A stretch of DNA of 38,982 nt from an uncultured Candidatus Saccharibacteria bacterium (GTDB taxonomy: Bacteria > Patescibacteriota > Minisyncoccia > Phycocordibacterales > UBA10002). The stretch is taken from positions 1 to 38,982 of the forward strand of contig CAYJWA010000002.1 in NCBI GenBank assembly GCA_964373775.1, read 5' to 3'. A program made the position numbers and the translations under genes. This document shows, one piece after another, positions 616 through 38,895 of this stretch. Positions within the stretch are counted from its first letter, which is position 1. Every line of letters begins with the position of its first letter. The notes beneath the pieces were generated by a model, which had not been told where the DNA came from, did not search any database, and saw only the letters and a list, made by a program, of their open reading frames with translations.

Positions 616-819
616 TCAATCTCCTATTTTACAAGGTCGGACCTTGTAATGTTTGCGGAGAATGAGAGACACAGACGGTCGTGATGCTGAGGACATTTGC
701 CGTTGTCGGCAATGATCAGTGCAATAGTACCCGCCATGGATATGCAGCATTTCTTCTGCGGGACGGCTGACCGTGCAACGAAAATTACTGCACGGTACGA
801 ATACAACTTTCATCTTCAT
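616..819 (-). CDS. Small YHS/TRASH-like putative metal-binding protein (67 aa)
   Basis: ATG at 819 is preceded by GAAGGA 5-6 nt upstream. MKMKVVFVPCSNFRC...HIHGGYYCTDHCRQ resembles the YHS pattern (Cys ... G-x-YY-x-C-x3-C). The last ~10 aa are encoded by the 21-bp palindrome at 629-649. Confidence 0.45.
   Translation of the reverse strand: MKMKVVFVPCSNFRCTVSRPAEEMLHIHGGYYCTDHCRQRQMSSASRPSVSLILRKHYKVRPCKIGD
629..649. repeat. Palindrome family member (TTACAAGGTCGGACCTTGTAA)
   Basis: Perfect palindrome. The core TACAAGGTC-S-GACCTTGTA also occurs at 5934, 5989 (1 mismatch), 10876 and 10932. Confidence 0.9.
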
Positions 820-1137: not shown

Positions 1138-1275
1138 GGAAAAGAACAAAACACAGTACATCTACCCTTCGGGGATCTCCCGAAGGGAGACAAAAATTTG
1201 ACGGACTAAAGAAGATTTGTTTTCTGAAAGGGTTTGCGCTTTGTTTGGACACTGGGTTGTTTGTGTTTTGGGCAG
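1138..1275 (+). repeat. Long structured palindromic element, copy 1 (5' arm shorter)
   Basis: Shares the core aaaacacagtacatctacccttcggggatctcccgaagggagacaaaaa and the tgtgttttgg 3' arm with copies at 20077-20266 and 23570-23726. Confidence 0.8.
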
Positions 1276-1393
1276 TTTGAAGCTTTGCGCCCTGTGGATA
1301 AATCGGCTTTCTATTGCGGTGCAAGGGAATATAATGGCCACATACAAAAAGGGTCGCTTAATCTTTTATCTTTTACGAGAGCAAGGTATTTTT

Positions 1394-3022
1394 ATGCATA
1401 AGAAAAACATCTCAATTGCGCTCGCATTTCTTGGCGCCACAGTAGCAATCGGGTGCGGCGCCACGGTCGCGTTTGCGCAGGAAGGGGGAATGCCTCCGTC
1501 CCCTTCGTCTAGTGGAGGTAGCGGTTTTACCTCTCCTTCTTCAGAGCCAATGATTCAACCCGCGCCGAGGATGGAACCGGTTCCGATGATGGATGGAGGG
1601 GGCGGGAATATGCCGCCTCCGCCGGAACGGCCGAATGTGGGACTGCCTTCGGATGGCAGAATGGCGCCGTTTTCACCACGGGGAGATTTTCGCCAGGAGC
1701 AGAAGCCATATCCTGCATCAGAGGCAGAGGTGCGCGCGCGGGTAACTGAAGATATGACCCGGAAGATTACTGAACAGATGACCGAGAAAATTCGGAGCAG
1801 ATATGAAGGGCAGAGACATCCTTCGTCAGGGGAGATGATGCAGAATCAGCAAGGTAGGACCGCTTCGCCGGAGCGACAGCGAGGCGAGCCTTTTGAAGGA
1901 GAGAGATTTATGCCGCCATCCCAAGGGAAAGGACAGCCGTTTATGGGTGGAGGGGATTTCCGCCCGCCCTCCCAAGGAAGCGGTCAGCCGTTTGAGGACG
2001 GCGGGTTTGGTCCGCCGGGGAATTTTGGTCCGGGCGGAGGCGGAAGAGAATTCGGTCCCAGCGGCTTTGGGGGTTCCTGGGGACCGGGCGGCGATGGAGA
2101 GGGAGGTGGATTCAGCGGTCCGAGTGAGGAAGAAATGGGTCAGATGATGGAGGAGCGGGAGAAACAGATGAAGATGCAGCAACTCGCACAAATGAGGCGC
2201 GGCTTCGGCGGCATGGAATCAGGTCTTCGGCAAGTCAAAAAAGTCATTGACCGTTTAATCAAGAAAGGGGTGGCAGTTCCGCAGGAGTATGTCTCATTGG
2301 TGGACGATTTGACGCGGGCAGTGGAAGTGGTGAAGAACGCGGAAGATTTTGACGAGACCGTAGAAGCCGCCATGGAGGTCTTGCAGGAGAAAGGACCGGA
2401 ACTGGGGGATATTGGACCGCGGCTCGGCATGCTGGAGCAATGGCCAAAGGTTCTCTCGCAGGCGGAGAAACAGGTGAAGCGTTTGGAGAGCGTTCTTGCG
2501 AAGACCAAAAAGAGAAAAGGTACGGCAGAGTACGCGGACATTGTCGCAAAGGTGGAAGCGCGCGTTGGCGGCATTCGCTCCCGATACGAAGAAATCAGGC
2601 GCGCGGGCGAGTCCGGCGATTTTGAAGAGGCAATGGACAGCATGCAGGAGTTCTTTGAGGATATCGGAGACGCGCACCGCGAGGTGGGCGTGCTTGACCA
2701 GTTGGGCAATATCGCAAAGATGATTCGCTCCGGCGAGAAGGAGATTGCGAGTTTTGAGAAACAGGTGAAGCGTTTGGAGAAAAGAGGAATTAACGCAAGT
2801 TCCGTTACCGCTTTGATTGCGGAAGGGCGCGCAAAACTTGCGGAGTTGAAAGCGCTCGGCAAGAATGCGGATGCGGAGCCGGAGGACTTCTTTGCGATTA
2901 TGCAGGAGTTGGACGAGCTCCGGCAGCGGGCAACCGATGAGTTTAATCTTCTTCAGGGCCGCGGAGCATCGCAGGAGGGCGCGGTTATCCGTTCGCTCAT
3001 TGAGTTGCGGGAGGGGAGGTAG
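1394..3022 (+). CDS. Secreted protein with a Gly/Pro/Met-rich low-complexity region and a C-terminal coiled-coil region
   Basis: MHKKNISIALAFLGATVAIGCGATVAFAQ looks like a signal peptide. Repeats PPSQG(K/S)GQPF and EKQVKRLE(S/K) are present. Alternative start ATG at 1334. No family recognised. Confidence 0.7.
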   Translation: MHKKNISIALAFLGATVAIGCGATVAFAQEGGMPPSPSSSGGSGFTSPSSEPMIQPAPRMEPVPMMDGGGGNMPPPPERPNVGLPSDGRMAPFSPRGDFRQEQKPYPASEAEVRARVTEDMTRKITEQMTEKIRSRYEGQRHPSSGEMMQNQQGRTASPERQRGEPFEGERFMPPSQGKGQPFMGGGDFRPPSQGSGQPFEDGGFGPPGNFGPGGGGREFGPSGFGGSWGPGGDGEGGGFSGPSEEEMGQMMEEREKQMKMQQLAQMRRGFGGMESGLRQVKKVIDRLIKKGVAVPQEYVSLVDDLTRAVEVVKNAEDFDETVEAAMEVLQEKGPELGDIGPRLGMLEQWPKVLSQAEKQVKRLESVLAKTKKRKGTAEYADIVAKVEARVGGIRSRYEEIRRAGESGDFEEAMDSMQEFFEDIGDAHREVGVLDQLGNIAKMIRSGEKEIASFEKQVKRLEKRGINASSVTALIAEGRAKLAELKALGKNADAEPEDFFAIMQELDELRQRATDEFNLLQGRGASQEGAVIRSLIELREGR

Positions 3023-3219: not shown

Positions 3220-3303
3220 TGGGCGAGGTGGGACTTGAACCCACAGTTCCTTTCGGAGCACGGTCCTAAGCCGTGTGCGTTTAGCCAATTTCGCCACTCG
3301 CCC
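3220..3303 (-). tRNA. tRNA-Leu (anticodon UAG), class II with a long variable arm
   Basis: Reverse complement GGGCGAGTGGCGAAATTGGCTAAACGCACACGGCTTAGGACCGTGCTCCGAAAGGAACTGTGGGTTCAAGTCCCACCTCGCCCA. Folds as acceptor 7 bp, anticodon loop CTTAGGA and T-loop TTCAAGT. CCA is not encoded. Confidence 0.9.
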
Positions 3304-3365
3304 AAGGTTAATGTAAACCCAGCACCAGGGTCATCACTGGGCATTTTCATCTTTCAATTACCCTG

Positions 3366-3501
3366 TCCGCCCAGTAGGATTCGAAACTTACCGTTTCAGT
3401 ACCCCGATTGGTTTTTCTGTTCGTTCGCCGCGGGCGGACTCCAAAAAAGCTCAATCGGGCTTCAAATCCTACACGAAAGCGCCCCGCGCTTTCTTGGGCG
3501 G
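3366..3501 (-). pseudogene. tRNA-Lys-derived tRNA-like structured element (relic or ncRNA)
   Basis: The 3' 22 nt are identical to the tRNA-Lys 3' end, and the 5' end UCCGCCCA pairs with it. The interior is not a cloverleaf but has several helices. Confidence 0.4.
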
Positions 3502-3515
3502 ACGCGCTTCGCTTG

Positions 3516-3588
3516 TCCGCCCAGTAGGATTCGAACCTACGACCCTCCGCTTAAGAGGCGGGTGCTCTACCAACTGAGCTATGGGCGG
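3516..3588 (-). tRNA. tRNA-Lys (anticodon CUU)
   Basis: Reverse complement CCGCCCATAGCTCAGTTGGTAGAGCACCCGCCTCTTAAGCGGAGGGTCGTAGGTTCGAATCCTACTGGGCGGA. Canonical D and T arms, anticodon loop CTCTTAA, and an unusual C1-G72 pair. Confidence 0.9.
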
Positions 3589-3696
3589 CTACATCATCCG
3601 CGGCGGATGATCGCCCGACCAAAACAAAGTTTTGGTTTAGGGTTTTCTGCTGCGAATAGGTTATAACACAAAAAGACCGAAAATTGAACCTGTGGA

Positions 3697-3723
3697 TTGC
3701 GGCCGCGACCGTTGTGCTATACT
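3697..3723 (+). promoter_or_regulatory. Possible rnpB promoter (TTGCGG-N15-TATACT)
   Basis: -10 TATACT at 3718-3723. The -35 is weak and the spacer is short. Confidence 0.35.
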
Positions 3724-3730
3724 TATCCGC

Positions 3731-4122
3731 AGCCCATTAGGAGTTAATTTCACCCACACACCTTGATGGAAAGTTCTGTGCCTCACGCGAGGTTAGGATT
3801 TTTTTAGCATTCACCACGAGTTTTAGTGAACAGGTCAAGGTGCCGGGGTTCACGACCATGTTGGGCGGACACTAATTCCAACAAAGAGACAGTTCGCTGT
3901 CTCTTTGTTGTTTTTGAGATATACATACCAATCCCAATAGTAGAGCGGAGCTCGCTACGGGACAGGTATACGAATCCGCCGCGGCGGACGAATCAACCTA
4001 TGTCCGACCGGGTCGAACAGGTCTAGGACGAATGGCTACGCATGATGCAGGCATAGGTAACTTCTGAGCGGTCGCACAGAAGTTGCATATATTAGATTTG
4101 TTTGAGATAACTCATTAGGGGG
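3731..4122 (+). ncRNA. rnpB: RNase P RNA (bacterial type A-like, divergent). Boundaries +/- 30 nt.
   Basis: Ordered matches to remembered M1 RNA motifs: GAUGGAAAGUUC (cf GAGGAAAGUCC), CAAGGUGCC, CACGACCA, CAACAAAGAGACA (cf CAACAGAGAGCA), CCCAAUAG, CUAGGACGAAUGGCU (cf CUAGAUGAAUGACU) and GCACAGAAGUU, which is complementary to AAGUUCUGUGC at 3771-3781 (P4-like). Ends CCC-AUUAG-GAGUUA / UAACUC-AUUAG-GGG can pair (P1/P2-like). Confidence 0.7.
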
Positions 4123-4166: not shown

Positions 4167-5378
4167 ATGGATGACATACAGCTTCCCGAGCCGCAGGCAA
4201 GACACGGGGAAACCGCGTGCCCGTATTGCGGGGACAGTCCAATCCGGCATTTTGAAACCTTTGTGAGCGAGAGCATAGCAAGCGCCGCGAACCAGTGGCT
4301 GTCGTTTCCGGGCATGCGCGCGCTCCACGGATTTGTGGACAGGGTCTCTCTCGGCTTTGCGCGGTTCTTTATTTTTCTGTTCCGCGCGATTGGCGCCGCT
4401 TCTTTTTCGCGCGACATTTTGCGCGCCAGGACTTTGCGCTCCGCGCTCATTTGGCGGGAAGCGCGCAGGCGCGGCATCGCGATGGAGCAATGTATTGCAT
4501 GGGGAAAGCCGACCGAGTGGTACCGCGCCCGACTTCGCGGGAGGTGGCGCTATTTTGAGAGCATTCCGCTTCCGCCTGCGCTTTCGCGCAGGGGGCACGA
4601 GTGGCTTGATGATAAGCACTTGGTTAAGGAGAAATTGCGACGGGCTGGGATTCCCGTTCCGCGCTCGGTTGTTGTAAAAAGCGCGCGCGCCGCCCGCGCC
4701 GCGTTTTTGCATCTTGGCGCGCCGGTTGTGGTAAAACCCTGCACGGGTTCGCGCGGCAGGCATACGACTGTTTTTGTGCCGGATGTTGCTTCATTAGAAA
4801 AAGCGTTTTGGCGTGCGCAAAGAATCAATCATTTTGTCGTCATTGAGGAGTATCTTTCGGGAAGCGTCTGCCGCGGAACCACTGTTGCCGGAGTGCTTCG
4901 CGGATTTCTGAAAGCCGACCCTCCGATTGTTGTGGGAGATGGGAAGCGCACCCTTGCGAAACTGATAGCGGAGAAAAACCGCACCCGTCCAAAGCGGGTT
5001 GCGGAGGTGCTTATCCGCCCGGAACTGACAGAGTTTGTGGCGAGGCAGGGATATGCGCTTTCTGCTGTGCTTCCACAAGGGCAGCGGTTGCCGCTTCTCT
5101 TTCGCACCGGACGGCTTTTTGGCGGCAGAACGCGTGAGATGCTTTCTGAAGTGCACCCCGAGTTTCGCGCCGCGCTCGAGAAGGCAGGGAGAGTCGCGGA
5201 TGCTCCCGTGGTCGGTTTTGATGTTATTATTCCTGACCCAACGCGCGCGCCCGCGGGACAGAAATGGGGAGTTATAGAGGGGAACAGTTTGCCTTTTATT
5301 GACCTGCACGATTTTTCGTTGGAAGGCGCGCCCGCCAATGTCGCCTCCCATATCTGGGATTTGTGGGAGCGGGGATGA
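4167..5378 (+). CDS. ATP-grasp protein resembling the N-terminal/ATP-grasp part of cyanophycin synthetase (CphA). No Mur-ligase-like domain.
   Basis: Motif order VVVKPCTGSRGRHTTV, VVIEEYLSG, PPIVVGDGKRTLAKLIAEKNRTRP, FRTGRLFGG, VHPEF, VGFDVIIPD and IEGNSLPFIDLH matches the remembered CphA ATP-grasp layout. N-terminus has CPYC and one hydrophobic helix. Confidence 0.7.
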   Translation: MDDIQLPEPQARHGETACPYCGDSPIRHFETFVSESIASAANQWLSFPGMRALHGFVDRVSLGFARFFIFLFRAIGAASFSRDILRARTLRSALIWREARRRGIAMEQCIAWGKPTEWYRARLRGRWRYFESIPLPPALSRRGHEWLDDKHLVKEKLRRAGIPVPRSVVVKSARAARAAFLHLGAPVVVKPCTGSRGRHTTVFVPDVASLEKAFWRAQRINHFVVIEEYLSGSVCRGTTVAGVLRGFLKADPPIVVGDGKRTLAKLIAEKNRTRPKRVAEVLIRPELTEFVARQGYALSAVLPQGQRLPLLFRTGRLFGGRTREMLSEVHPEFRAALEKAGRVADAPVVGFDVIIPDPTRAPAGQKWGVIEGNSLPFIDLHDFSLEGAPANVASHIWDLWERG

Positions 5379-5912: not shown

Positions 5913-5933
5913 ATCCACGGAACAGCACTGCTG

Positions 5934-5952
5934 TACAAGGTCCGACCTTGTA
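5934..5952. repeat. 19-bp palindrome family member (TACAAGGTCCGACCTTGTA)
   Basis: Perfect 9-bp arms, between convergent genes. Confidence 0.9.
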
Positions 5953-5988
5953 AGATGTCGGGGAACGGCTTAACGATGCCGTTTCTGG

Positions 5989-6009
5989 CTACAAGGTCCG
6001 ACCTCGTAG
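5989..6009. repeat. Palindrome family member (CTACAAGGTCCGACCTCGTAG)
   Basis: 10-bp arms with one mismatch, 37 nt after the previous copy. Confidence 0.85.
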
Positions 6010-6025
6010 ATTTAGTTCCGTGTTT

Positions 6026-9188: not shown

Positions 9189-9241
9189 GTGTGGACCGAG
9201 GGGGAGTCAAACCCCAAGAGCGGGCGGTCTCGTCAACCTTA
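9157..9241 (-). ncRNA. Candidate small RNA (~85 nt), family unknown
   Basis: Lies between the promoter at 9248-9275 and the terminator at 9157-9188. Predicted helices GACCG/CGGUC and GGGG-UUUGACU-CCCC. Confidence 0.45.
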
Positions 9242-9247
9242 TGGGGC

Positions 9248-9275
9248 AGTATAGCATTTACTTTGTCCGTGTCAA
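9248..9275 (-). promoter_or_regulatory. Near-consensus promoter TTGACA-N16-TATACT with a perfect DnaA-box 9-mer 6 nt upstream
   Basis: Minus strand reads ttatccaca actcgc ttgaca cggacaaagtaaatgc tatact. Confidence 0.65.
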
Positions 9276-9379
9276 GCGAGTTGTGGATAAGTACCATTCG
9301 CCCCGCCTCACTCAATCTCTCGGCTCTTTATACCATACGGCTTTGTAAGAGTCATCTTCTGCTATATAGTTTTCATGCA

Positions 9380-11677
9380 ATGCAAAAATTCCAGCTGAAA
9401 AGCAAGTTCAGACCCGCTGGTGACCAACCAAAAGCTATTAAGGCATTGGTGGAAGGATTCAAGCGCGGCGAGCGGTATCAAACGCTACTTGGCGTTACCG
9501 GAAGCGGGAAAACCTTCACAGCGGCCAATGTGATTGCGCAGATTCAAAGGCCAACACTGGTGATTGCGCACAATAAAACGCTCGCGGCACAACTTGCGCA
9601 GGAGTACAAAGAGTTTTTTCCGGATAACGCGGTGCATTATTTTGTTTCCTACTACGATTACTACCAGCCGGAGGCGTATCTGCCTATAACCGACACCTAT
9701 ATTGAGAAAGAAGCGCAGATCAACGAGGAGATTGACCGCCTTCGGCACGCGACGACACAGGCGCTTCTCTCGCGCCGAGATGTGATTGTAGTTGCGAGCG
9801 TCTCGTGTATGTATGGGTTGGGAAGTCCCGAGGAATATGAAAAAGTGAATATAAAATTGCAAAAAGGACAGCGCGTCTCTCGCGGCGATGTTTTGCGCGC
9901 GCTCATCGGCATACATTATATACGTACGAACGCAGACCTATCCCCCGGCGAGTGCCGCGCGCTCGGCAATGTGGTGGAGGTAATGCCTCAAAGTGAGCGG
10001 GAGATGTATCGTATTGAGATTAGTGACGAGCTCGTTCAGCGGATTCAAAAGATTGACCCGATTACGCGGAAACTTTTGGAAGAAATAGATGCGTTGTTTA
10101 TTTTTCCGGCAAAACATTTCATCACGCCGGAGGAGGACCGCGCGCGAGCGATTGAGACAATCAAGAGTGAGCTGAAAAACCAGTTGAAGAAATTTGAAAA
10201 AGAGGGGAAATTGCTTGAAGCCGAGCGGCTTAAACGTCGCACCAACTATGACCTCGCGATGATACGCGAAGTCGGCTATTGCAACGGGATTGAAAATTAC
10301 TCACGCCACTTTTCGGGGAAACTCCCCGGCGAACCGCCCGATACCTTGCTTTCATATTTTTCCGCATCTCCAAGGTTCGACCTTAAATCGGGAGAAAGGT
10401 CGAACCTTGGAGATAGTGCAGATTTTTTGACCATCATCGACGAATCTCATGTGACAATTCCACAGCTTCGCGGAATGTATGCGGGGGACAAATCGCGGAA
10501 AGATACGCTTGTCGAACACGGCTTCCGTCTTCCCTCGGCGCGTGACAATCGTCCGTTACAGTTCCACGAGTTTGAGGAGCGGGTAGGGCAAGTGATTTTT
10601 ACCTCGGCGACGCCCGGGCCGTATGAGTTCGAGAAGAGCGGCACAGCAGTTGTCGAGCAGGTCATTAGACCGACTGGATTGGTTGACCCGCAGGTTGAAA
10701 TACGACCGGTAAGCGAGAACTTTTATTCCTCCTTTCCTAAAGGAGGCGCCCCGAATCTTCGAGGGACGGAGGATTTTAAAATCCCTCCTCCGATGTCACA
10801 TCGGAGTGCTCCCTTTAAGAAAGGGAGAAGAGATCGGCAGGGCTACTGCGGACAGATTCAGGACTTTAAAAAATCTACAAGGTCGGACCTTGTAAAAAAA
10901 GAGGGTTATAAAACAGGTTCTTTCACCCGTCTACAAGGTCGGACCTTGTATGGAGGGCAGGTTAAGGATTTCATCGCGGAGGCAGAAAAAGATATCAAAG
11001 CCGGTGGGCGGGTCATTGCGACGACGCTTACGAAGAAAATGGCCGAGGACCTCGCGGCGTTTCTCAAGGAAAAGGGTATCAAAACCGAGTACCTGCACAG
11101 CGACATTTTGACACTGGAGCGGATTATGATTCTGACGCGGTTTCGCAAGGGTGAGTTTGATTGTCTGGTGGGGGTTAATCTTTTGCGCGAAGGGCTGGAC
11201 CTTCCCGAGGTTTCGCTTATCGGCATTTTGGACGCTGACCGCGAGGGGTTTTTGCGTTCGCAGACATCACTCATTCAGATTATTGGTCGCGCGGCGCGCA
11301 ATGTCGCGGGGCGGGTGATTTTGTATGCGGATGTTATTACCGGTTCAATAGAAAAAGCGATTGGCGAGACGAATCGGCGCCGCGCGCTTCAGCTCGCGCA
11401 TAACAAAAAACACGGCATCACGCCGAAAACAATTATCAAAAAAGTGCGTGATATCATCGAAGCCTTCTGCTTGGAGCACGAAAAGGCCGTCAGTCACCTT
11501 ATGGAGATAGACAAAGAAGCGCTGAAAAATAAGACACTCAACCAGTTGCTCAAAGAAAAGAAAGTCCAAATGAACGCGGCAGTCAAAATTCTTGATTTCG
11601 AGACGGCCGCATTGCTCCGCGACGAAATCCGCGAGTTGGAGAAGCTGACACTGCATCCACTTATAATGTATCGCTGA
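9380..11677 (+). CDS. uvrB: Excinuclease ABC subunit B, carrying two in-frame repeat insertions
   Basis: MQKFQLKSKFRPAGDQPKAI...GVTGSGKTF, DESHVT, TLTKKMAEDL, GRAARN and the C-terminal UVR domain. ATG at 9380 fits orthologue N-termini. Confidence 0.95.
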   Translation: MQKFQLKSKFRPAGDQPKAIKALVEGFKRGERYQTLLGVTGSGKTFTAANVIAQIQRPTLVIAHNKTLAAQLAQEYKEFFPDNAVHYFVSYYDYYQPEAYLPITDTYIEKEAQINEEIDRLRHATTQALLSRRDVIVVASVSCMYGLGSPEEYEKVNIKLQKGQRVSRGDVLRALIGIHYIRTNADLSPGECRALGNVVEVMPQSEREMYRIEISDELVQRIQKIDPITRKLLEEIDALFIFPAKHFITPEEDRARAIETIKSELKNQLKKFEKEGKLLEAERLKRRTNYDLAMIREVGYCNGIENYSRHFSGKLPGEPPDTLLSYFSASPRFDLKSGERSNLGDSADFLTIIDESHVTIPQLRGMYAGDKSRKDTLVEHGFRLPSARDNRPLQFHEFEERVGQVIFTSATPGPYEFEKSGTAVVEQVIRPTGLVDPQVEIRPVSENFYSSFPKGGAPNLRGTEDFKIPPPMSHRSAPFKKGRRDRQGYCGQIQDFKKSTRSDLVKKEGYKTGSFTRLQGRTLYGGQVKDFIAEAEKDIKAGGRVIATTLTKKMAEDLAAFLKEKGIKTEYLHSDILTLERIMILTRFRKGEFDCLVGVNLLREGLDLPEVSLIGILDADREGFLRSQTSLIQIIGRAARNVAGRVILYADVITGSIEKAIGETNRRRALQLAHNKKHGITPKTIIKKVRDIIEAFCLEHEKAVSHLMEIDKEALKNKTLNQLLKEKKVQMNAAVKILDFETAALLRDEIRELEKLTLHPLIMYR
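10367..10413. repeat. Perfect 17-bp-stem hairpin element inside uvrB
   Basis: tctccaaggttcgacct (10367-10383), 13-nt loop, aggtcgaaccttggaga (10397-10413). Confidence 0.9.
10712..10954. repeat. 243-nt composite of stacked palindromes inserted in frame in uvrB
   Basis: Hairpins at 10728-10746, 10768-10788, 10790-10804 and 10809-10827, plus 19-bp palindromes at 10876-10894 and 10932-10950. Confidence 0.85.
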
Positions 11678-14088: not shown

Positions 14089-14212
14089 TAGATTAATGTT
14101 GTAAGATTAAGCATAACACAGATTAAAGTTGTAAGATTTAAGTACGACAGTAGAACTCAAAGCCGGATTTCCCTACTTTAATCTTTAATCTTTAATCTGA
14201 AATCTTAAATCT
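14089..14212. repeat. Low-complexity palindromic spacer: 2x ~30-nt AGATTAAWGTTGTAAGATT units facing 4x CTTTAATCT-type units
   Basis: Direct reading. The right-hand units are the reverse complement of AGATTAAAG. Confidence 0.8.
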
Positions 14213-15227: not shown

Positions 15228-17882
15228 ATGCAGCATCAAGGCGATAAAATCATTGTTAAGGGAGCACGGACACATAACCTTAAGAACATCACGGTTGAGA
15301 TGCCGCGCAATAAACTGATTGTATTCACCGGGCTTTCCGGAAGCGGGAAGTCGTCTTTGGCGTTTGATACGATCTTTGCGGAAGGTCAGCGCCGCTATGT
15401 GGAGTCGCTCTCTGCCTACGCGCGGCAGTTCCTGCGGCAGATGCAGAAGCCGGATGTGGACGAGATTATCGGACTCTCGCCGGCCATTTCCATTGACCAA
15501 AAGAGCCGTTCCAACAACCCGCGTTCAACGGTTGCGACCATTACCGAAATTTACGATTATCTGCGCGTCTTGTTTGCGCGCGTCGGGAAACCGCACTGTC
15601 TTCTCTGCGGGCGAGAAATCAAAAAGCTCTCCAACGAAGAAATTAAAGACACCATTTTGGAAGCGGTTGCGCGCGTGCGGAAAAGCGCTGCCGGGCCGAG
15701 GGTTCTTGGCGTCGCCGTGAGCAACGCGAAGCTCAAACTCTACGCGCCCATCGTCGTCGGGCGCAAGGGCGAGTACTACCAGTTGCTCTACGACTTGCTA
15801 GGAAAGGGGTACGCAGCGGTGAAGGTGGACGGTGTTGAGAAAAAACTGCGCGAGCCGATTGTCTTGGAGAAAAACAAGAAGCACGACATTGATGTGTTGG
15901 TAGACGAATTCTTTCTGTCGGAGCTCGCTAGGGGGAGCGACGCGACGAGGGAGCGTCTGCCGGAGGCAATTGAGCGCGCGCTCCACGAATCGGGCGGGCT
16001 CGTGCGCGTAGAAACATCTGCCGAGAGCAAGATTATTTCCGCCAAGTTTATGTGCCCCTACGACGGCTTTTCGTACCCAGAGGTGGAGCCGCGGCTCTTC
16101 TCTTTCAACTCGCCGTACGGCGCGTGTCCGGAATGCAACGGCCTCGGCACGCGGCATTTCTTCGGAGACGAGCCATGCCCGAAATGCAAAGGCGCGCGGC
16201 TGCGCGATGAATCTCTCCATGTCGTGCTCGGAAGCACGACCGCGGACAAGCGCGGACTGGACGCAGACCTACGCGGAAGGGGAAGCGGCGTAAACATTGT
16301 GCAGTTATCGGCCATGTCCATTGCGGATGCATACGACTTTTTCGTGGAGCTGAAGCTCTCGCCGAAGGAGCGGGAAATTGCCAAAGTCGTGCTCCGCGAG
16401 ATTGAGTCGCGACTGCAGTTTATGATTGATGTGGGTATTGAGTACCTCACACTTGACCGGCGGGCGCATACGCTCTCGGGCGGCGAGGCGCAGAGGATTC
16501 GGCTTGCCTCCCAACTGGGGAGCGGGCTCGTGGGCGCCCTGTATGTGCTTGACGAGCCGACCATCGGACTCCACGCGCGAGATAACGCGCGACTCTTGAA
16601 GACCCTTCTGCACCTGCGGGATATCGGGAACACGATTATTGTAGTGGAACATGATGAGGAAACGATTCTTTCCGCGGATTATTTGGTGGATATCGGTCCC
16701 GGAGCCGGCGTGCATGGCGGATACATTGTCGTTGACGGCGATTTGCAAAAGCTGTTGTCGGCAAAGACGAATGCAAGCAAGTCGCTGACACTTTCGTATC
16801 TGCGCGGCGAGGTGGAGATTGAAGTTCCGGAAACGCGCCGCACGCGAGACAAAGGCGCGCTCAAAATCCGCGGCGCAAAGATCTTCAACATACAAAATGT
16901 TTCGGTGGATGTGCCGCTTGGAAAACTGACGGTGATTACCGGCGTATCCGGTTCCGGCAAGTCCTCGTTTCTGTATGAGATTCTGCACAAAAATCTTCAG
17001 GCGCGGTTTGACCGCAGGTACCGAAGCGCTGAAACCTTTCACTGCAGCTCATTTACCGGTACTGAATACCTTTCACGCGCCATTCTCATAGACCAGTCCC
17101 CGATTGGGCGCACGCCACGCTCCAATCCTGCGACCTACACCGGAGCGTGGACATTCATTCGTGGGCTTTTTGCCGAAACTGAGGAGGCGCGCGTGCGCGG
17201 CTGGAGTCCGAGCCGCTTTTCGTTCAATGTGCCCACCGCAGGCGGGTCCGCCTCGGGCGGAAAAGGGGGTAGATGCGAAGCGTGCCAAGGGAACGGCGAG
17301 ATAGCCGTGGAGATGCACTTTCTCCCGACCGTCTATGTCACCTGTGATGTCTGCAATGGCAAGCGATTTATGAAAGAAACGTTGGAGGTGAGGTATAAGA
17401 AAAAAAGCGCCTACGACATACTTCAGATGACGATTGAGGAGTGTCTTGAATTCTTTGAGGATATCCCCGCGGTAGCCGATCGTTTAAAAACTTTAAACGA
17501 TGTAGGCCTAGGGTATCTAGAGTTGGGCCAATCCGCGACGACCCTCTCCGGCGGGGAGGCCCAACGGGTGAAAATATCCTCGGAACTCTATCGTACGCAT
17601 GTCCAAAAGACCATCTATCTTCTGGACGAGCCGACCGTGGGTCTCCACTACGAAGATGTAAAAAAGCTCATTGAGATTCTTCAGAAACTGGTGGACCACG
17701 GAAATACGGTCGTGGTCATTGAGCACAACATGGATGTGATTAAAAGTTCGGACTATGTTATTGACTTCGGGCCGGATGGCGGCGACGGGGGAGGGCAGAT
17801 TATCGCGAAGGGAACGCCGGAAGAAGTTGCAAGCCATAAGAAATCGTACACGGGGGAGTATTTGCGAAAGGCGCTTGGGTAG
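15228..17882 (+). CDS. uvrA: Excinuclease ABC subunit A
   Basis: [34 protein letters not shown], two ABC modules and zinc-finger cysteines. Confidence 0.95.
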
Positions 17883-17960
17883 ATTTAGGATTTATGATTT
17901 AAGATGTAAGAAAAAAACCAGCCGTTCATACCGACACGACTGGCATGGTTCCCTGGACGG

Positions 17961-18385: not shown

Positions 18386-19858
18386 ATGAATAGTCAAGCG
18401 TTTCCCAAGAGGCGAAGGATTTCAAAATCCCTCCCCCCACCGGGTACTCCCTTTAGAAAAGGGAGAATACCCGATACCCCCGGGGTGTATTTCTTTCTTG
18501 GGCGACCGCGAAGCGGTTTAGCCCGAGGGTCTCTACACCCTAAACCCGCAAGGGCGGGTCGGGTTTTGTATATCGGGCGCGCCGCCTCGCTCCGCAATCG
18601 CGTGCGAAGCTATTTCGCACCTGACATCGCGGAGAAGCGAAGCTCGTGGATTGCGAAGATGCTTACCGAGGCGAAGAGTATTAATTTCCGGAAAACCGAT
18701 TCAGTGCTTGAGGCAATTCTCCTTGAGGCATACCTTATCAAAAAACTTCAGCCGCCATACAATACGGAACAGAAAGACGACAAGAGCTTCAACTGCATCG
18801 TCATCACCGACGAGTCGTTTCCCGCGCTTATGGTCGCGCGTCAAAAGAACATAGACTTTTCCTCGGTAAGGATTAAGCCTGCCCGCCGAAACCTCGGCGC
18901 AGGCGGGGATGAAGGATTAAAGATTCGCGCCGTGTACGGTCCTTTCCCGCACGGTGAGGAACTTCAGACCGCGCTTAAAATCATCCGTAAGATTTTTCCC
19001 TTTCGCGACGATACATGTACGCCGTGCCCCCAAAGTATCAGAGGACATTCCAACATTCTCAAGAATGTTGGAATGTTGTGTCGCCCGTGCTTTAACAGGC
19101 AGATAGGACTTTGCCCGGGGGTCTGCACCGGCGAGATACGCGAGCGGGAGTACGCAAAAACAATTCGGAATATCCGGCTCTTTTTTGAGGGGAAAAAACC
19201 GCGACTGCTGAAACTGCTCAAATCAGAAATGAATGCCGCGGCAAAAGCGCAGGAATTTGAAAAAGCTAGCGTAGTTAAAAAAACCATCTTTGCTCTCCAG
19301 CACATCCAAGAGGTCGCCCTCCTCAAAACTTTTAACTTTACACTTTCAACTTTTAACTTCAGGATTGAGGCCTACGACCTCTCGCATTTCGGCGGAAAAG
19401 AAATAGTCGGCGCAATGGCGGTAGTTCTAAACGGCGTCGCGCAAAAAAGCGAGTATCGCCTGTTCAAACTGCGCGGCATCAGGTCGCAAAATGAAGTTGC
19501 CGGTTTGCAGGAAATTATCCGCCGCCGCTTGAATCATCCGGAATGGCTGTTTCCAGATTTGATTGTCGTTGACGGAAACGAGGTCCAGAAAAATGCGGCT
19601 GAAAAGATTCTGAAAGAATGGGGAAGAGTGATTCCGGTTGCCGCGGTCGTGAAAGACGAGCGCCATCGCCCGCGGGAAATTCTTAACAAGATGCTTGCTG
19701 TCGGGCAACCCTCCTACATTCCGAGGAATGTAGGAATATGGAGCGAACAGCAAGAATTACATGCGGCGATTCTTCTGGCGAACAGCGAGGCGCACCGATT
19801 CGTTCTGAAGTTCCAGCGCAGGCAGCGGCTGGTTAAACGAACCGCTGTGAAAAACTGA
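18386..19858 (+). CDS. uvrC: Excinuclease ABC subunit C. Short form with no C-terminal (HhH)2 domain and several in-frame hairpin insertions.
   Basis: GIY-YIG (PGVYFF...VLYIGRA...RNRVRSYF), UVR domain (EFEKASVVKKTIFALQ), endonuclease domain (IEAYDLSHFGG). Ends ~15 aa after SEAHRF. Confidence 0.9.
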   Translation: MNSQAFPKRRRISKSLPPPGTPFRKGRIPDTPGVYFFLGRPRSGLARGSLHPKPARAGRVLYIGRAASLRNRVRSYFAPDIAEKRSSWIAKMLTEAKSINFRKTDSVLEAILLEAYLIKKLQPPYNTEQKDDKSFNCIVITDESFPALMVARQKNIDFSSVRIKPARRNLGAGGDEGLKIRAVYGPFPHGEELQTALKIIRKIFPFRDDTCTPCPQSIRGHSNILKNVGMLCRPCFNRQIGLCPGVCTGEIREREYAKTIRNIRLFFEGKKPRLLKLLKSEMNAAAKAQEFEKASVVKKTIFALQHIQEVALLKTFNFTLSTFNFRIEAYDLSHFGGKEIVGAMAVVLNGVAQKSEYRLFKLRGIRSQNEVAGLQEIIRRRLNHPEWLFPDLIVVDGNEVQKNAAEKILKEWGRVIPVAAVVKDERHRPREILNKMLAVGQPSYIPRNVGIWSEQQELHAAILLANSEAHRFVLKFQRRQRLVKRTAVKN

Positions 19859-20076: not shown

Positions 20077-20266
20077 AAAGCACGAAACACTTTCTTAAAA
20101 CACAAAGCACAGTATCCAAAGAACCAAACAGACTTCACAAAACACAATACATCCACCATTCGGGGGATCTCCCGAAGTGAGACAAAAATCCAAACGAAAA
20201 GGCAAGTTTGTGTTTTGAGTAGTTTGAAGTTTTGTTTGGAAACCGTGCGGTCTGTGTTTTGGAAAG
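20077..20266 (+). repeat. Long structured palindromic element, copy 2 (upstream of rpoB)
   Basis: Core acaaaacacaatacatccaccattcgggggatctcccgaagtgagacaaaaa. The 3' end gtgcggtctgtgttttggaaag is shared with copy 3. Confidence 0.85.
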
Positions 20267-20303
20267 TTGATATGAATATTATTGGTAACGCAGCTCACCC
20301 TAT

Positions 20304-23569: not shown

Positions 23570-23726
23570 GCACAAGCACGAAACAATCTTCTTACAACAC
23601 AAAACACAGTGTCTCCACCCTTCGGGGGATCTCCCGAAGGGAGACAAAAACCCAACGGGGAAATGAGTTTGTGTTTTGAAAAGATTGTGTTTTGTCTGGA
23701 CTTTGTGCGGTCTGTGTTTTGGAAAG
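23570..23726 (+). repeat. Long structured palindromic element, copy 3 (rpoB-rpoC intercistronic)
   Basis: Core acaaaacacagtgtctccacccttcgggggatctcccgaagggagacaaaaa. Starts 3 nt after the rpoB stop. Confidence 0.85.
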
Positions 23727-23770
23727 GGTAAGAAGTTCTTGTTTCGGCTTTGCCAAGTAATCCTTATTGT

Positions 23771-28880: not shown

Positions 28881-28985
28881 GCAGAACAGGGAACAGGGAA
28901 CAGGGAACAGGGAACATGAAATATGGAATATGAAATATGAAATAGGGAACAGGGAACATGAAATATGGAACATGAAATATGAAAT
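28881..28985. repeat. Heptamer microsatellite array (15 units of AGGGAAC / ATGAAAT / ATGGAAY), including a 2x 42-nt tandem duplication
   Basis: Direct reading. The 42-nt units lie at 28902-28943 and 28944-28985. Confidence 0.9.
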
Positions 28986-29210: not shown

Positions 29211-32200
29211 GTGTTTGTTTTTCGTGTCGGAAAGAACAAGCATGGCTCGTTAAACCTTTCTACTTTTATCATTAGCATTTTTTCTCACACTATGTTCTCT
29301 CCTTTTTTTACGGCGTTGTTGTCTCGTAAAGCGGCAACAACGGGTTTTGCTGTTGCGCGAAGCTGCAGGAAGCGCGCTTTTGGATTATCCGGAGTGTGCT
29401 TTTTTGTTTTTGCGCTCGCCCTTTTATTCGCAGGAGCGGCGCCTGTCCATGCGGCGATTATTGAGCAAGCCCCGGTGATTGACGGGTTCTTTGAGAATAA
29501 TCCGACCATTGGCGGCGGGGCGATTTTGCCGCTCGCCAAGTTCCGGCTCTCGCAGGCAAGCGGTTCGGATACGCTCACCAAAGTCGGCGTAACGCTTGTG
29601 GCGTCCAGCACCATGGCGAATGGTTCCATCTCCCGCCTTTCCCTCTGGAAGGAGTCGGGCACGAAGCCGGGCTTTCAGCTTGATTCCGACACATTTGTTA
29701 CTGGCGCCGCGTCAACCACTGTTACTACTGGATTGCTTGTTGTGCTTCAACCTGGTAACGAGACCCCTGCTGTTGCTGGTACTGAGTATTACATTATCGC
29801 GTCAACCACTGCCGTGTCAGGGCTTACCAACGGCCATGGATTCAATGTGCGTATGGACGCGAACTATGCAAGCACCTCTGCTTTAACCGGGGTCGGAGCG
29901 AATCCGTTTATTTCAAACCGCAAGGTCTCGCTCAATCAAAATGCGACATTGAAGATTAGCGAGGTGAAGATAGGGACGGTCCTGAGTAGCGCCGACGAGT
30001 TTGTTGAACTCTACAACTCCGGCGAGGCAGACATCAATCTCCAAGACCTCCCGCTTGCGGTGCACTCATTCTACGCAAGCGGCAGTTCCACGCCGGGCAT
30101 CCCACTGACCTATTACAAGAAGATTATTCCATCGCACGGTTATTTCCTTATCGCGAGTCAGTCCGGTTACAGCGGAAATGCGCAACCAGATGCAATCTTT
30201 GCCACTTCCACATTCACGGGCATCCTTTTCGCAAATGGCGGACTCTCCATCGCCACCAGCACGGTTGCCGCCTCTGCTACATCCACGGCGATTGACTTTG
30301 TTGGCTGGGGCACCCAGCCCATAACAAGTTGTGAAAACAGCGAGGCAAGCACCACACCATGCGTGCTGACGCTTCTGGAAAATGGCGCGAGCATTGAACG
30401 GCTTGCCACGGGCTACCCCGCGGCATCATCTACCGCCGCTTCTATGGCATCAGGAGGAGTTGATGCTACAAAAGGTAACGGCTTTGACAAGAACTTCAAC
30501 AAGACCGACTTTGTGTTGCAGACCATAGCTAATCCGCAAAACACCTTGAGTCCCGTTGAGTTTCCGTTCGGCGGCGGCGGGACCGACACATCTTCGTTTC
30601 AGGTGCAGGGTTCGTATCCAACAAATGGACAGACAGGCGTTCCCATTGACACGAGATTTTTCGGTTTTAATCTCACGAAGCCGGCCAATGCCGACACGAT
30701 TGCGAGCGTATCTGCGACCACGACAGTAACACTCTTTAAGGTAGTGAATAACGGACCAACGGGCTCAAATCTCTGTTCCAACGTCTTATATAACCCGATG
30801 CCGGGCAGTTTTGAGCCGCAGGTAAAGTGCAATATAACGAGCACCCTAGAGGCAAGCACCTCGTATGTCTTTACAGTAACGAGCGCGGTGCGCGACCTCT
30901 CCGCGAATAATCTTGACCAAGACACATTTTCGCCGGGGAATCAGAATTACGCGGCAACCTCAACCACTGGCGCCGCGGGGCAGACGATGACGAATGTAAC
31001 GCCGCCCTCCGTCATCGGCACTTCTCCGTTCAACGGGAACACCAACATCCCGAGCAACCTCGCTTCTATGGCGGTTGAGTTCTCAACGGACATGAGGCCG
31101 TCCACTATTACCGGCGCAGTGGGAAGCACCACCATTGCTCTGGCAACTTCAGGAGGAACGAGCGTGGCATTTCAGAGTTTCAGTTTCAGCACCTCTACTG
31201 GCAGGAATGTCCTCTCAATGGTTCCCGGGACGCTCGCGGCAAACACGACCTACATCTTGACGATAACGGGAGGCGTCCAGAGCACCAACGGCATAAACCT
31301 CGCAAGTCCTTACTCGTCGCGGTTCACGACGGGCGGAAGCGCCGGTGACACCACAGCGCCGGTGGTCGTCGGAGTCCTGCCGACAAACGCGACTACCATC
31401 GCGGCGAATACCAATGACTTCGTGGTTATCTTTGACGATGCCATGGATGCGTCCACTGCAACAAGCGGCGCGATTACGCTCGCGATTACGAGCGGTCCTG
31501 CCCTTCCCGGCACCGTGCGCTATGACCCTGTGTCCAAAGAGGCGCATTTTGTCCCGAGCAATATCTTGCCGGTCAGCACCGGGCTGACGCTTACCCTGAA
31601 GGGTGCGTCGCTGAAGAATGCTTCCGGAGTGTACCTCGGTTCCAATATCACCAAGACCTGGACTGTTGAAGCGTCAAATACTGACACTACTCCTCCAGCC
31701 GTACTCTATGTCAATGTGGATGAGTTCAGCGTTGCGGTTACCTTTAACGAGGCGGTGAATGCGACTGACGCGACAAACTTGAGCAACTACTCGCTTGTGG
31801 TTGGCGGTCAGACACAGACACCCTCTGCGCTTGCCGGACATACAATTACATACGACGCGTCAACGCGCACTGCCAAACTTTCAGGGCTGCGATTGGCGTC
31901 CGGCGCCGCGGTAACCGCCAGCGTGTCCAATATCAAGGACATCTCCGGAAACAGTATGACTGCGACCGCGGTTTCTTCGGCGACCGTGAACTCGTCAACC
32001 GGAAGCGGCGGCACTGGTGGGTTCGTGGGTCCCGGCTCTTTCACCGGTTCCACCTTTGGAGCGACGACCAATTTTACTTCCGCAGGCATTGGCTTTATGC
32101 CGCCGGTCAACATACGGCCGACCAGTACCTTTATCAGCGCGTCCTCAACATACGCGTTTGAACTCCCGCTCTCCAAGCAGATTAACGCAGGCGGTACCAT

Positions 32201-35200
32201 TGTCATTACCTTCCCGTCAACTTCTGACTTCGGACTTTGCTGCGCCGCAACGACCTCAAGCAAAAATCCGTTTCTCGCGGAGATTAACAAAGACATCAAC
32301 GGTTCTGGAACCGGTACCATCGGCATTCAGACCATTACCAAAGATACGACAGCAAAGACGATTACGCTTACATTGGATACTGCCACGAATTCGGAGGGAC
32401 ATGATTTTCTGCGTTTTTCCCTCGCGGACATGAAAAACCCGTCAATTCCCAAGGGCATTGACAGTTCGGGCTACTCTATTGACATTAAATCCAAGTCGTC
32501 AGCCGGGACGCTCCTTGAGTCATTCAGCGCCAATCCGGTCTATATCACGGGCGGGACTGCGGGAGGCGGCTCCACGACCCAGATTCGCGGCACGGTCTCT
32601 GGAAATGGCGGCAATCTTCAGGGGGTAACGATTCACCTCATGTCTCCGCAGACAGGACCAATGGACGCGACAACCGATTCAAACGGACTCTATTCATTTG
32701 CGGATATTCCAGTCGGCTCGCAATTTCTGACGAATAACTTCGGCGGTGGAAGTGAGTACTACCTCTTCACTGACCCGTTCATCAATCCAACCGGCACATC
32801 AACCGCATTCTTCGGCAACACCATGCCGACTCCGATTCAGGCAACCTCAACATCTCTTTTGACGCGCGATTTTGCGCTGACTGCGACCTCTTCGGCGGTT
32901 AACTTTACGGTAAATCTTACGGCAGCCGCGAATACCTTTTCTTCAACCGAGACAGTTGATGTCTTTGCCGGAGGTCCCGGGCAGTTCGTGGTTCGCACCG
33001 TGACGCCGGGAGCGTCCGCGCTCACCAACGCAGTGCTGACCACGATTCCCATCCCGCAGACGAACGGCAGTTGGGGCGTCGGCATCGGTCCCGCCATGCC
33101 CAAGGGTACGGGAGGCGGTTTTTCTGGACCTCCCACAGCGCCCAACTGGTCCCCGCCGCGACCAATTGAAGTAGTGGTATCAGGGTGTCCGACTGCCTGT
33201 GTCTCTAAAATCGGCGGCACCGCAACGACCTCAAATAACTTTACAATTTCAACGGCCGATAAGAGCATCGTTGGCGTCCTGAAGGACGGAAGCGGTAATG
33301 CGATTGCCAATGCAATGGTCTTCGCCTACTCCGGCGCCAATGGCACTGGCGGTAGCGCACAGACCTCCTCTACTGGCGTCTTTACGGTTAAGGTCGTGAG
33401 CGGCTCGTATGTGCTGGGTGCATTTTCTCCGGGTGTGGGCAAGTCGCGGGAGATTCCTGTCGTGGTGGACTCTTCGGGCAATGTCTTCTTTGACGGTTCC
33501 CAAACCGCATCCGCTTCCTATACGCTCACGATGTCAAAACCGGGTTATACCATTACCGGCCAGGTGACTGACGGCTCAAGCGCGGTCGGAAATGCTCCGG
33601 TCTTCGCCTATCGCACCGACGGATTTGGACGCGCGGACGCAATGAGTGACTCTTCAACGGGCAACTATACGATGTATGTTGATAACGGTACCTGGAAAGT
33701 TAACTCTTTTATTCCCGGATTTGGTCCTATGGATGAACAGACCGTTGTCATCGCAGGCGCAAATCAATCCGGCATCAATTTCGCTCCATCTTCATCGCAG
33801 GCATTCAGCTTGTATTCGGGCAACATCTACGACGACGCGGATAACAACAACATCTTCGCGACATCAACCGAGGGTCTTGTCGGCGCCGTCATCCGGCTCT
33901 CGGGTTCAAGCGGCGTGAATGAAGGGGTCTCGGGCGCGGAGGGCGCGTTCTCTATCCGCGTGAAGTCCGGCAGCGGCTACGCCATTACTGATATCTTCAT
34001 GCCCGGCTATGGCCGCATTGCGCCACTGAACAACGCGGGTACTGCCATCGGCACGCTCAATCTTACGGCCTCCTCAACCAATAACTACATCCGGGTTCCG
34101 AAGCGCAATACCATTACGATTAATGTGAAGGACTCAAGCGGCAACTCGATCAGCGTTAGCAAGGCATTCATTGACCTCTTCAACACGACGACCAAGCAGG
34201 GAACGCATGTAGAGATTACGAGCGCGACCACAACCACCATTCAGGTAGCAACCGGCACATCGCCCACGGTGCGCGCGTATGTGCAGGGCGTGCCGCCGGC
34301 GAATATCTCAGTCGCTTCTGACAGCTCCGGTACCGCGGTCTCAGGCGGCGTTGTCACTGTAGACAACGCGACCGAAGCGATAAAAATCGTCGTGAACACC
34401 GCTTCGGCAAGTTTCTCGCGGGTTCTCGGCACGGTGTACAAAACAGCCGCGACGAGCGGGAACGAACTGGAAGACGCGTGGATTCAGTTCATTGATGAAA
34501 CGAATGGAGTGCACTTCGGGACCCAGGCGACCACTTCCGGCAAGTATGATGTAAGCGCGCAGAATGGCTCGTATCAAGTCATTGTCTCCAAGCCCGGCTA
34601 TATCGGCACCCCGACGACGGTGACGGTTTCCGGTACGACCACGCAGAACTTCATTCTTGATTCGGCGTCGCTGACGATTTCCGGAACGGTAACCGCAGGG
34701 GGAAGTGCGGCCGCTAATGCCTTCGTTCGCGCCGAAAAAGTCGGCGGCGGGCAATCAATCGGGCAGACGAGCACCGACGGCACCTACAGTTTGAGTGTGA
34801 CGGCGGGGACATGGCGGGTCTTTGCGACGGCCGATGGATATTCACAGGGCGCGTCCGCGAGCAACCCAATCACTGTCTCTGGTTCATCGGTAACAGGGAA
34901 AGATGTTGCGCTTTCAACGACGGTCAGCTTGCAATCCAAACTCGCGACCTCAAACACCTTCACTGACACCGCGGCGGGCACCTTTACCGACTCAACCGTC
35001 GGGGTAAATATTGATTTGGATTCAAACGCGCTCGGCTCGGCAGGCAACAATTCGTATATGACGGCGAAGGAGACGAGCAACATCCCGAATACCGCGAGCG
35101 TCAATATTGTCGCGAGCAAAGCAAAAGACATCAATGCGTATTCCGGCGGCTCGCAGGTGAAGAACCTGCAATCCGGCAAGACCGCGACGGTTGACCTCAC

Positions 35201-38822: not shown

Positions 38823-38895
38823 TGGCGACAGAAATCTTTGCTGTGTGCGGATGGACGGGCCCGTTCGTTCATAGCAGATACGTTTAACGAATAGA

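Follow-up and report, generated by a model that had tools for sequence, protein, structure and literature searches.

The uvrB gene on contig CAYJWA010000002.1 raises the question of how an 81-codon segment, in frame and free of stop codons (10712-10954, + strand), came to lie inside an otherwise ordinary copy of this gene. The window analysed here is the entire contig of 38,982 nt. Its uvrB gene (9383-11677, + strand) encodes 764 aa when read from MQKF, within an open reading frame (ORF) that opens at 9191, and apart from its inserts the product is a normal UvrB, which matches B. caldotenax UvrB with an E-value of 1e-227 and contains the full set of UvrB Pfam domains. The closest UvrB relatives come from metagenome-assembled genomes (MAGs) of Taylorbacteria/Paceibacterota, with at most 74% local BLASTP identity (up to 81% over aligned columns), and the gene order is kept in relatives; the window is therefore a chromosome fragment of a member of the Patescibacteria, or candidate phyla radiation (CPR). 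We conclude that the 243-nt segment is probably a serial pile-up of small palindromic repeats, of the type known as REP (repetitive extragenic palindrome) or REPIN (REP doublet forming a hairpin), in a permissive surface loop of UvrB. It is made of at least two dispersed palindromic families, and the first of these is physically tied, in related genomes, to an enzyme that resembles the RAYTs (REP-associated tyrosine transposases).

Composition of the uvrB insert

The initial annotation had described the segment as a stop-free insertion of 81 codons built from stacked palindromes. Its letters match the earlier transcription and lie inside the single ORF 9191-11677. In an alignment with solved UvrB structures, residues 444-524 (from ..IRPV to GQVKDF..) remained unaligned, which agrees with the proposed size, but the excess that is specific to this lineage amounts to about 75 rather than 81 codons (roughly 10721-10948), because CPR relatives already carry six more residues here than B. 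caldotenax. The insert lies in a loop that connects the VRPV strand to the GQVKDF helix. We take this to be the junction of UvrB domains 1a and 3, going by the solved-structure alignment and by the domain boundaries of Theis et al. (1999).

Each of the palindromes listed earlier was found in the segment. Perfect hairpins are present at 10728-10746 (stem 8), at 10788-10806 (stem 9, which lengthens the CCGATG..CATCGG palindrome noted before), at 10809-10827 (stem 8) and, as two copies of TACAAGGTCGGACCTTGTA, at 10876-10894 and 10932-10950 (stem 9); the GGAGGATTTT/AAAATCCCTCC palindrome proved to be imperfect (14-nt arms, 79%). Over the whole window we counted 33 perfect hairpins with a stem of at least 8 and a loop of at most 9, compared to 6.1 ± 1.9 in dinucleotide shuffles, and five of the 33 fall within the 243-nt insert. 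The RNA fold of the insert has a z-score of -3.85. Its frame was free of stops in just 0.8% of shuffles, and the remaining five frames contain 1, 5, 2, 4, and 6 stops. A Pfam search of the insert gave no match, and an Rfam search of the window returned two tRNAs only, with nothing in the insert region. An AlphaFold (AF2) model of UvrB predicted residues 448-522 as coil with a pLDDT below 35. This model was poor as a whole (pLDDT 58.5, built from 25 sequences), and we use it only for the predicted coil, since beyond an unstructured insert it is too poor to say more.

Comparison with orthologues showed that this part of UvrB is variable. In 25 relatives (69-81% identity), inserts were located at three hot spots, namely site 1 before DFLTxIDESH, site 2 before VVEQVIRPTGL, and site 3 between VRPV and YxGQIxDF, the last being the site of the 81-codon insert; their length and sequence varied, or the insert was absent. 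In addition, 85 uvrB loci were retrieved by tblastn, independently of gene calls. The site-3 excess over B. caldotenax ranged from 6 to 80 aa across these loci, the largest being that of the window, and the reading frame was uninterrupted in all 85. Translation is therefore the likely fate of the inserts. Of 26 distinct site-3 inserts, 18 folded far better than controls of equal length taken from within the gene concerned (mean z -3.05). Neither the alignment of the 25 relatives nor the 85 loci revealed a homologous domain at the insert site and, judged by sequence, the 243-nt segment is repeat DNA and no protein domain. The uvrB genes of two of the loci, L101 and L111, have the same hairpin-spacer-hairpin architecture, the same 56-nt period and the same right junction as positions 10874-10950 of the window. 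In the uvrB gene of L103, one hairpin of ∼36 nt (C6/G6) is present at both site 2 and site 3, and site 1 of L104 is a simple TCTGCG tandem.

Read from left to right, the insert is a stack of separate elements, which bears out the earlier suggestion of nested or serial insertion: a family-2 element, a copy of a native UvrB segment, and a family-1 unit. The family-2 element (10722-10831, + strand) is an imperfect long palindrome of ∼110 nt, centred at 10777/10778, with 29-nt arms (10726-10754 and 10801-10829) that are 76% complementary and each contain a small hairpin; in uvrB it is translated as ..SSFPKGG..KIPPPMSHRSAPFKKGR... In other CPR genomes, we found a full-length intergenic homologue in L078 (5027-5165), and half-elements in L021, in the alaS leader of L098, and in frame within the AlaRS of L098 (read as KIPPAEDGSAPFTKGR). 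The window itself has a further half-element where the uvrC ORF begins (5' end; 18424-18470, + strand). In L098, the half-element at 4269-4328 abuts the start codon of alaS with its terminal AAAGGGAGAATAAAACATG, and its 3' arm may therefore be the alaS ribosome-binding site. Of the paired arms CCTCCTTT/AAAGGAGG in the window copy, one resembles an anti-Shine-Dalgarno and the other a Shine-Dalgarno sequence.

Between the two elements lies GYCGQIQDF (10841-10867, + strand), a second and diverged copy of the native Y-x-GQIxDF segment. Its GQIQDF part (10850-10867) had been interpreted as a duplicated target. The similarity is real, with 16 of 27 nt matching the resumed LYGGQVKDF (10946-10972), but L101 carries the same element with the same right-hand junction and without the duplication. 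GYCGQIQDF is closer to the native consensus of the relatives, Y.GQIQDF, than LYGGQVKDF is. The copy more likely originated from a later local duplication or from illegitimate recombination than from a clean insertion or a target-site duplication.

The family-1, or REP, unit (10874-10950, + strand) completes the insert and consists of the TACAAGGTCGGACCTTGTA hairpin, a 37-nt spacer and an identical hairpin, the two hairpin copies being read in different frames as TRSDLV and QGRTLY. As had been noticed before, this palindrome is also found in intergenic DNA: a solitary copy lies at 629-649 (+ strand), and a second unit of hairpin, 37-nt spacer and hairpin at 5932-6013 (- strand; hairpins 5934-5952 and 5990-6008). 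Altogether the 19-mer gave 10 strand-matches at five sites in the window, compared to none in 100 shuffles. The intergenic unit (5932-6013) has a homologue in the unit that L101 carries within uvrB, their spacers agreeing at 24 of 37 positions (65%) in a hand count. Together with the L103 hairpin found at two uvrB sites and the family-2 homologues in L078, L098, and L021, this indicates that the repeats have spread by duplication.

Palindromes of the insert thus recur within the window, and they do so in other genomes as well. The family-1 core is AAGGTC-S-GACCTT, mostly TACAAGGTCSGACCTTGTA, and a scan of public genomes for the exact 19-mer, with one genome per species, returned at least 100 genome stretches. 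All taxonomically named records among these were Patescibacteria, namely the Parcubacteria group (Taylor-, Lloyd-, Nomura-, and Kaiserbacteria), one Levybacteria, and several Saccharibacteria; in the NCBI taxonomy, the Parcubacteria-group lineages and the Saccharibacteria (Saccharimonadota) are different candidate phyla. Single MAGs carry nine to twelve 19-mer loci. The copies are arranged as single hairpins, inverted dimers, and spaced direct pairs: 33 of 51 adjacent pairs were inverted, most often 24 or 27-28 nt apart, and direct pairs were found at 43-65 nt, an organisation reminiscent of REPINs and of BIMEs (regularly spaced REP clusters). The inverted dimers keep even the asymmetric centre base. 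In one Nomurabacteria bin, Gx485_bin132 (L004, L023, L034, L035, L037, L038), TGgTATAAT-like boxes repeatedly follow 15-17 nt after the 19-mer, which may overlap promoters there.

A second insert in the window's uvrB gene had been missed earlier. It comprises 18 codons at ∼10361-10414 (+ strand) in hot spot 1, and is likewise palindromic and in frame. Its core (10366-10414) is an inverted dimer, CCAAGGTTCGACCTT-N11-AAGGTCGAACCTTGG, with 19-nt arms that are 100% complementary, and can be described as a REPIN-like variant of the family-1 hairpin, translated as PRFDLKSGERSNLG. The insert is orthologous to one in the uvrB gene of L103, and its dimer architecture recurs in at least 20 dimers elsewhere.

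A RAYT-like transposase beside the hairpins

In a Lloydbacteria locus (L010), units of hairpin, 45 nt and hairpin stand on both sides of a gene (3282-4004) whose product contains the motifs YHVYNRG, MPNHFHVLL, and YIHLNP and matches the Pfam family Y1_Tnp (PF01797) with 31.4 bits, against a cut-off of 23. Homologues of this transposase were present in 14 of the examined loci. In 11 of them (L010, L062, L027, L026, L092, L040, L074, L017, L077, L079, and L016) a copy of the core 19-mer overlaps the stretch of the gene that was matched or lies at most ∼250 nt from it; full-length transposase genes are flanked directly by a core copy. The motifs PNHFH and Y-I-H-L-N-P were invariant among 40 transposase sequences. 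Other hairpin classes flank transposase homologues of their own, as seen for AGATAGAG-N7-CTCTATCT in L129, CAAAGGGSGCCCCTTTG in L112, and CGAAGGTTSAACCTTCG in L016. Such a match of one enzyme lineage to one hairpin class is what REP-RAYT pairs would be expected to show.

An AF2 model of the transposase, based on 40 sequences, reached a pLDDT of 84.7. When this model was compared with the PDB using Foldseek, the best match was 4ER8 (E 6e-5, TM 0.61, 13% identity), followed by the TnpA proteins of IS608 and ISDra2. The 4ER8 structure shows the RAYT of E. coli in complex with a REP hairpin (Messing 2012). At the sequence level, a phmmer search against the PDB gave no match, and a profile search of the PDB reached only E = 0.13, to ISDra2 TnpA. 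The question was thus settled by the fold comparison. In NCBIfam, the L010 product matched a single model, the RAYT model REP_Tyr_transpos (NF047646), with 41.8 bits against a cut-off of 80, which makes the enzyme a distant branch outside the curated RAYT equivalog family. Public data hold over 4,500 members of the enzyme's own family, and the named ones all belong to Patescibacteria and are annotated merely as "transposase" or "hypothetical". Among the sampled loci there was one transposase gene per MAG, with two diverged homologues in REEB237. The transposases have diverged to ∼43% identity, although the 19-mer is identical across candidate phyla.

Four of nine full-length RAYT-like genes carry their own cognate hairpin in frame, always in one particular loop that immediately precedes the AYxLMPNHFH motif (L010 3438-3458; L062 aa 53-59; L129 2479-2501; L112 1644-1664). 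These belong to three hairpin classes, read as VQGPTLY, KIESKALSG, and SAKGRPLH, and a hairpin at this position could reflect self-targeting or autoregulation. In two unrelated loci that had been chosen for uvrB alone, a RAYT-like gene is situated immediately upstream of uvrB (L129 2310-2969; L112 1480-2166). We looked for the cognate hairpins of these two genes in the neighbouring uvrB genes, and in the DNA of both loci they were present only around the transposase gene.

Probable spread of the repeats and competing explanations

To count as intragenic, a copy had to lie well inside an open frame of at least 200 codons. This was the case for 42 of 123 exact 19-mer copies (34%), compared to 67% of random positions; outside long open frames the corresponding values were 66% and 33%. 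The copies are therefore about two-fold depleted in genes, and far from excluded. Pfam domains were recognised in 19 of the 20 hairpin-bearing frames that were checked. The host genes encode an AddA-like helicase-nuclease (twice), RecG, DinB, RadA, RNase R, and a Mur ligase, and furthermore TGT, MnmA, MurA, aminotransferases, and transketolase, with DNA-repair genes making up 7 of ∼22. The TRSDLV frame was used in 24 of the 42 intragenic cases, and there the sole asymmetric base of the hairpin falls on a synonymous third position.

By analogy with the RAYT of E. coli and the TnpA of IS200/IS605, a RAYT-like enzyme would recognise the hairpin in single-stranded DNA, cut it and rejoin it, and repeats would in this way spread through the genome. 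CPR genomes being short of intergenic space, many insertions would land in genes, and selection would retain only those that are stop-free, a multiple of three in length and located in tolerant loops. With survival restricted to tolerated insertions, the three UvrB loops would be graveyards of such elements. One step in the history of the window's insert would have been the local duplication or illegitimate recombination that yielded the GYCGQIQDF copy. In all likelihood the inserts are part of both the transcript and the protein, and would form a disordered loop, as in the predicted coil, at the domain 1a/3 junction and the start of domain 3 that does not abolish UvrB function.

Several findings weigh against a pile-up of REP-type repeats. 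The transposase stays below the NCBIfam cut-off for RAYTs. The window contig, which is the sole known part of the host genome, contains no RAYT gene, and the link to the transposase therefore rests on relatives. A near-identical genome with an empty site was not found, the closest being 72% identical in a metagenome scan and 74% in a protein search, and mobility is for that reason deduced from distribution rather than observed. The right-hand junction that four species have in common (those of the window, L101, L102, and L021) could go back to a single old insertion with vertical inheritance instead of repeated targeting. Many site-3 inserts of other lineages are unique hairpins without demonstrated repeat status. 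The 19-mer starts with TAC (GTAC beside transposase genes) and lacks the classical GTAG or CGTC tag of REPs. Finally, 26% of the copies have at least 3 extra complementary bp of variable sequence outside the core, and such flanks suit palindrome growth in situ as well as transposition.

Growth in situ is the alternative to which we give most weight, even if we consider it unlikely. Here template switching, fold-back synthesis or slippage would create the palindromes locally at fragile loops, from where they would grow outwards, with neither a transposase nor a mobile element involved. Besides the variable yet complementary flanks, this would suit the presence of palindromes of palindromes, such as 10726-10829 with its symmetry about 10777/8, the asymmetry of the centre base that is retained in inverted dimers, the many lineage-specific site-3 hairpins that have no known copies elsewhere, and the TCTGCG tandem at site 1 of L104. 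It leaves unexplained, however, why an identical 19-mer is found in different candidate phyla, why homologous spacers stand at unrelated loci, and why four hairpin classes tightly flank Y1 transposase genes. Growth in situ may nevertheless contribute to the later enlargement of elements once they have been inserted.

We think it slightly less probable still that the hairpin is a selected signal of the host, which might use it for DNA uptake, for protein binding or, at the RNA level, for regulation or stabilisation, and that its presence in uvrB is functional. The base-for-base conservation across distant lineages would be in line with selection, as would the position of the hairpin just ahead of TGnTATAAT-like boxes in the one Nomurabacteria bin. 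The 7 DNA-repair genes among ∼22 host genes recall uptake sequences, which are reportedly biased towards genome-maintenance genes (Davidsen et al. 2004). Yet the conservation can be attributed to the association with the transposase, for which the hairpin would be the recognition site, and a functional role in genes sits poorly with the two-fold depletion in long open frames. A bias towards repair genes is moreover seen for ordinary REPs (PMC3733652), and may reflect long modular proteins with tolerant linkers. An intrinsic terminator was considered separately and rejected, as on either strand the hairpin has T-runs on its 5' side and A-runs on its 3' side.

It is very improbable that the insert is lost on the way to the mature protein, be it through intron splicing, translational bypass or intein excision. 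The strong RNA structure of the segment speaks for removal, but the segment is a multiple of three in length and stop-free, and variable inserts are in frame in each of the 85 uvrB loci, whereas nothing would enforce the frame if the segment were removed. The two tRNAs were all that Rfam recognised in the window, and 81 aa with no Pfam match are too few for an intein. The chance that the insert is either a functional domain of this lineage or an assembly artefact is close to negligible: the open frame as such would fit a domain and repeats can in principle mislead assemblers, but relatives have no homologous domain at the site and the region is predicted as coil, and the same unit and junction are present in the independent assemblies L101 and L111, with similar units in NCBI, JGI, and ENA records.

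Two further candidates were tried and rejected. The two hairpin pairs with their 56-nt period and unrelated 37-nt spacers might be taken for a CRISPR-like or TIGR-like mini-array, but most pairs are inverted and differently spaced, spacers are met again at other loci, and a Y1 transposase gene lies next to the repeat. A known RNA family was discarded on the basis of the Rfam result.

Related systems and other repeats of the window

REP/REPIN-RAYT systems are known from E. coli, Pseudomonas, and others (Nunvar 2010; Bertels & Rainey 2011; Messing 2012). The CPR elements resemble them in their short hairpin of many copies (five sites plus the variant dimer in 39 kb), in their inverted dimers and spaced clusters, and in a Y1 HUH transposase gene that is flanked by its own hairpins. 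In most sampled genomes this gene is apparently present in one copy. As in REP-RAYT systems, different enzyme lineages go with different hairpins, and the enzyme has the HUH motif, the Tyr, and the Y1 fold, its predicted fold being closest to 4ER8. They differ in the untagged TAC or GTAC head of the hairpin, in the low identity (13%) of the protein to 4ER8, and in the fraction of intragenic copies, which is about one third as compared to the usual few. Further differences are that one 19-mer is common across phyla with ∼43%-identical enzymes, and that full-length transposase genes (4 of 9) carry their own hairpin in frame.

With IS200/IS605 elements and their miniature derivatives, the palindrome-associated transposable elements (PATEs), the CPR elements share a Y1 HUH enzyme that would act on subterminal hairpins in single-stranded DNA, and the direct hairpin-spacer-hairpin units resemble miniature IS200/IS605 elements with left and right ends. 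Unlike in IS200/IS605, the transposase is apparently single-copy in most sampled genomes and only the hairpins multiply; in addition, its best structural and NCBIfam matches are to RAYTs and not to IS200 TnpA.

Rickettsia palindromic elements (RPEs; Ogata et al. 2000) are reported to be palindromic, to lie in frame in essential genes of a small genome, to be translated, and to be tolerated on protein surfaces. The initial annotation had drawn this analogy, and it is apt insofar as the CPR elements are palindromic, in frame, and stop-free, and are located in conserved genes at sites that are empty in orthologues; as the organisms are unrelated, the likeness is a functional one only. Family 2, with its ∼110 nt, resembles RPE-1 in size and shape, and family 1 resembles the short RPE-4 and RPE-6. 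RPE-1, an element of 100-150 bp, differs in having no known transposase.

The accompanying idea that a different element system is at work here did not hold up, because the elements are REP/REPIN-like and linked to a RAYT-type Y1 transposase, and because intragenic REPs are already known (PMC3733652). In that study, Di Nocera et al. (2013) described REPs, single or dimeric, in frame within known genes, many of which serve replication and repair, among them uvrA, uvrB, and the genes of UvrD-type helicases, RecB, Pol I, and DnaE2. The uvrB gene of R. conorii contains two single REPs, intragenic REP clusters can encode 43-82 aa, RPE-4 and RPE-6 are themselves REPs, and flexible linkers were proposed as the basis of tolerance (PMC3733652). 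These REPs differ from ours in their organisms (Opitutus, Rickettsia, Thauera, and others, with no CPR genome included) and in their repeat sequences. RAYTs have been characterised as single-copy transposases that are associated with REPINs (PMC5581495). Our literature search returned no paper that contains the core sequence and none that links REP or RAYT to Patescibacteria. The repeat family therefore seems to be undescribed, and the phenomenon, as intragenic REPs in repair genes and as RPEs, was known before.

A pile-up of REP-type repeats would account for odd variable loops in CPR proteins by naming a specific family of elements and an enzyme that might mobilise them. Such loops would be repeat DNA and not domains, and should be handled as such in annotation and structure prediction. 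It would also bring the CPR into REP-RAYT biology, a field concerned until now chiefly with Proteobacteria, and make Patescibacteria a test bed for how much selfish DNA essential proteins tolerate and for the choice between inheritance and exchange of RAYT-hairpin pairs. A bolder proposal, which we put forward tentatively and with some doubt, is that CPR host an undescribed deep branch of REP-RAYT systems, in which the hairpin is constant across phyla, the transposase often carries its own hairpin, and the repeats are a major source of lineage-specific loops in housekeeping and repair proteins. If this were true, the constancy of the hairpin against the divergence of the enzyme would imply extreme co-constraint or repeated transfer between CPR lineages, and the in-frame cognate hairpin at one fixed loop of the transposase, in three classes, would hint at self-regulation.

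Besides tgt and uvrB, the window contains genes for a FIST protein, a histidine kinase and a response regulator, as well as uvrA, uvrC, rpoB, and rpoC. A 601-aa ORF (1217-3022) gave no match in a Pfam search, and a further ORF of 2,493 aa is located at 29211-36692. A third repeat of ∼130-170 nt, with a mean identity of 75%, is present upstream of the ORF that starts at 1217 (1145-1277), upstream of rpoB (20097-20268), and in the rpoB-rpoC spacer (23598-23728). It is itself a long palindrome around CCCTTCGGGGGATCTCCCGAAGGG, with flanking arms CACAAAACACA and TGTGTTTTG.

The other uvr genes carry repeats as well. In uvrA, an 18-aa insert (16233-16290) is built of short repeats of the CGCGGAC type, and a uvrB insert of L121 consists of ACGCGGAC repeats that resemble them. 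Two hairpin stretches in uvrC (19045-19076 and 19712-19735; stems 15 and 11) have ACATTCC/GGAATGT arms in common, and the one at 19712-19735 coincides with an alignment gap relative to solved UvrC. Intergenic tandem arrays of heptamers, made of GAACAGG/ATGAAAT and of AGATTTA/CTTTAAT in both orientations, are found at 28884-28985, 14090-14212, 17881-17912, 37056-37101, and 957-996. The start of the contig (1-55) is repeated at its end (38928-38982, and also 38886-38940) as the same 55 nt with one mismatch, and the 3' end forms a 42-nt tandem repeat of this shared terminal sequence; possible reasons are a tandem array at the borders of the contig or an artefact of circular assembly.

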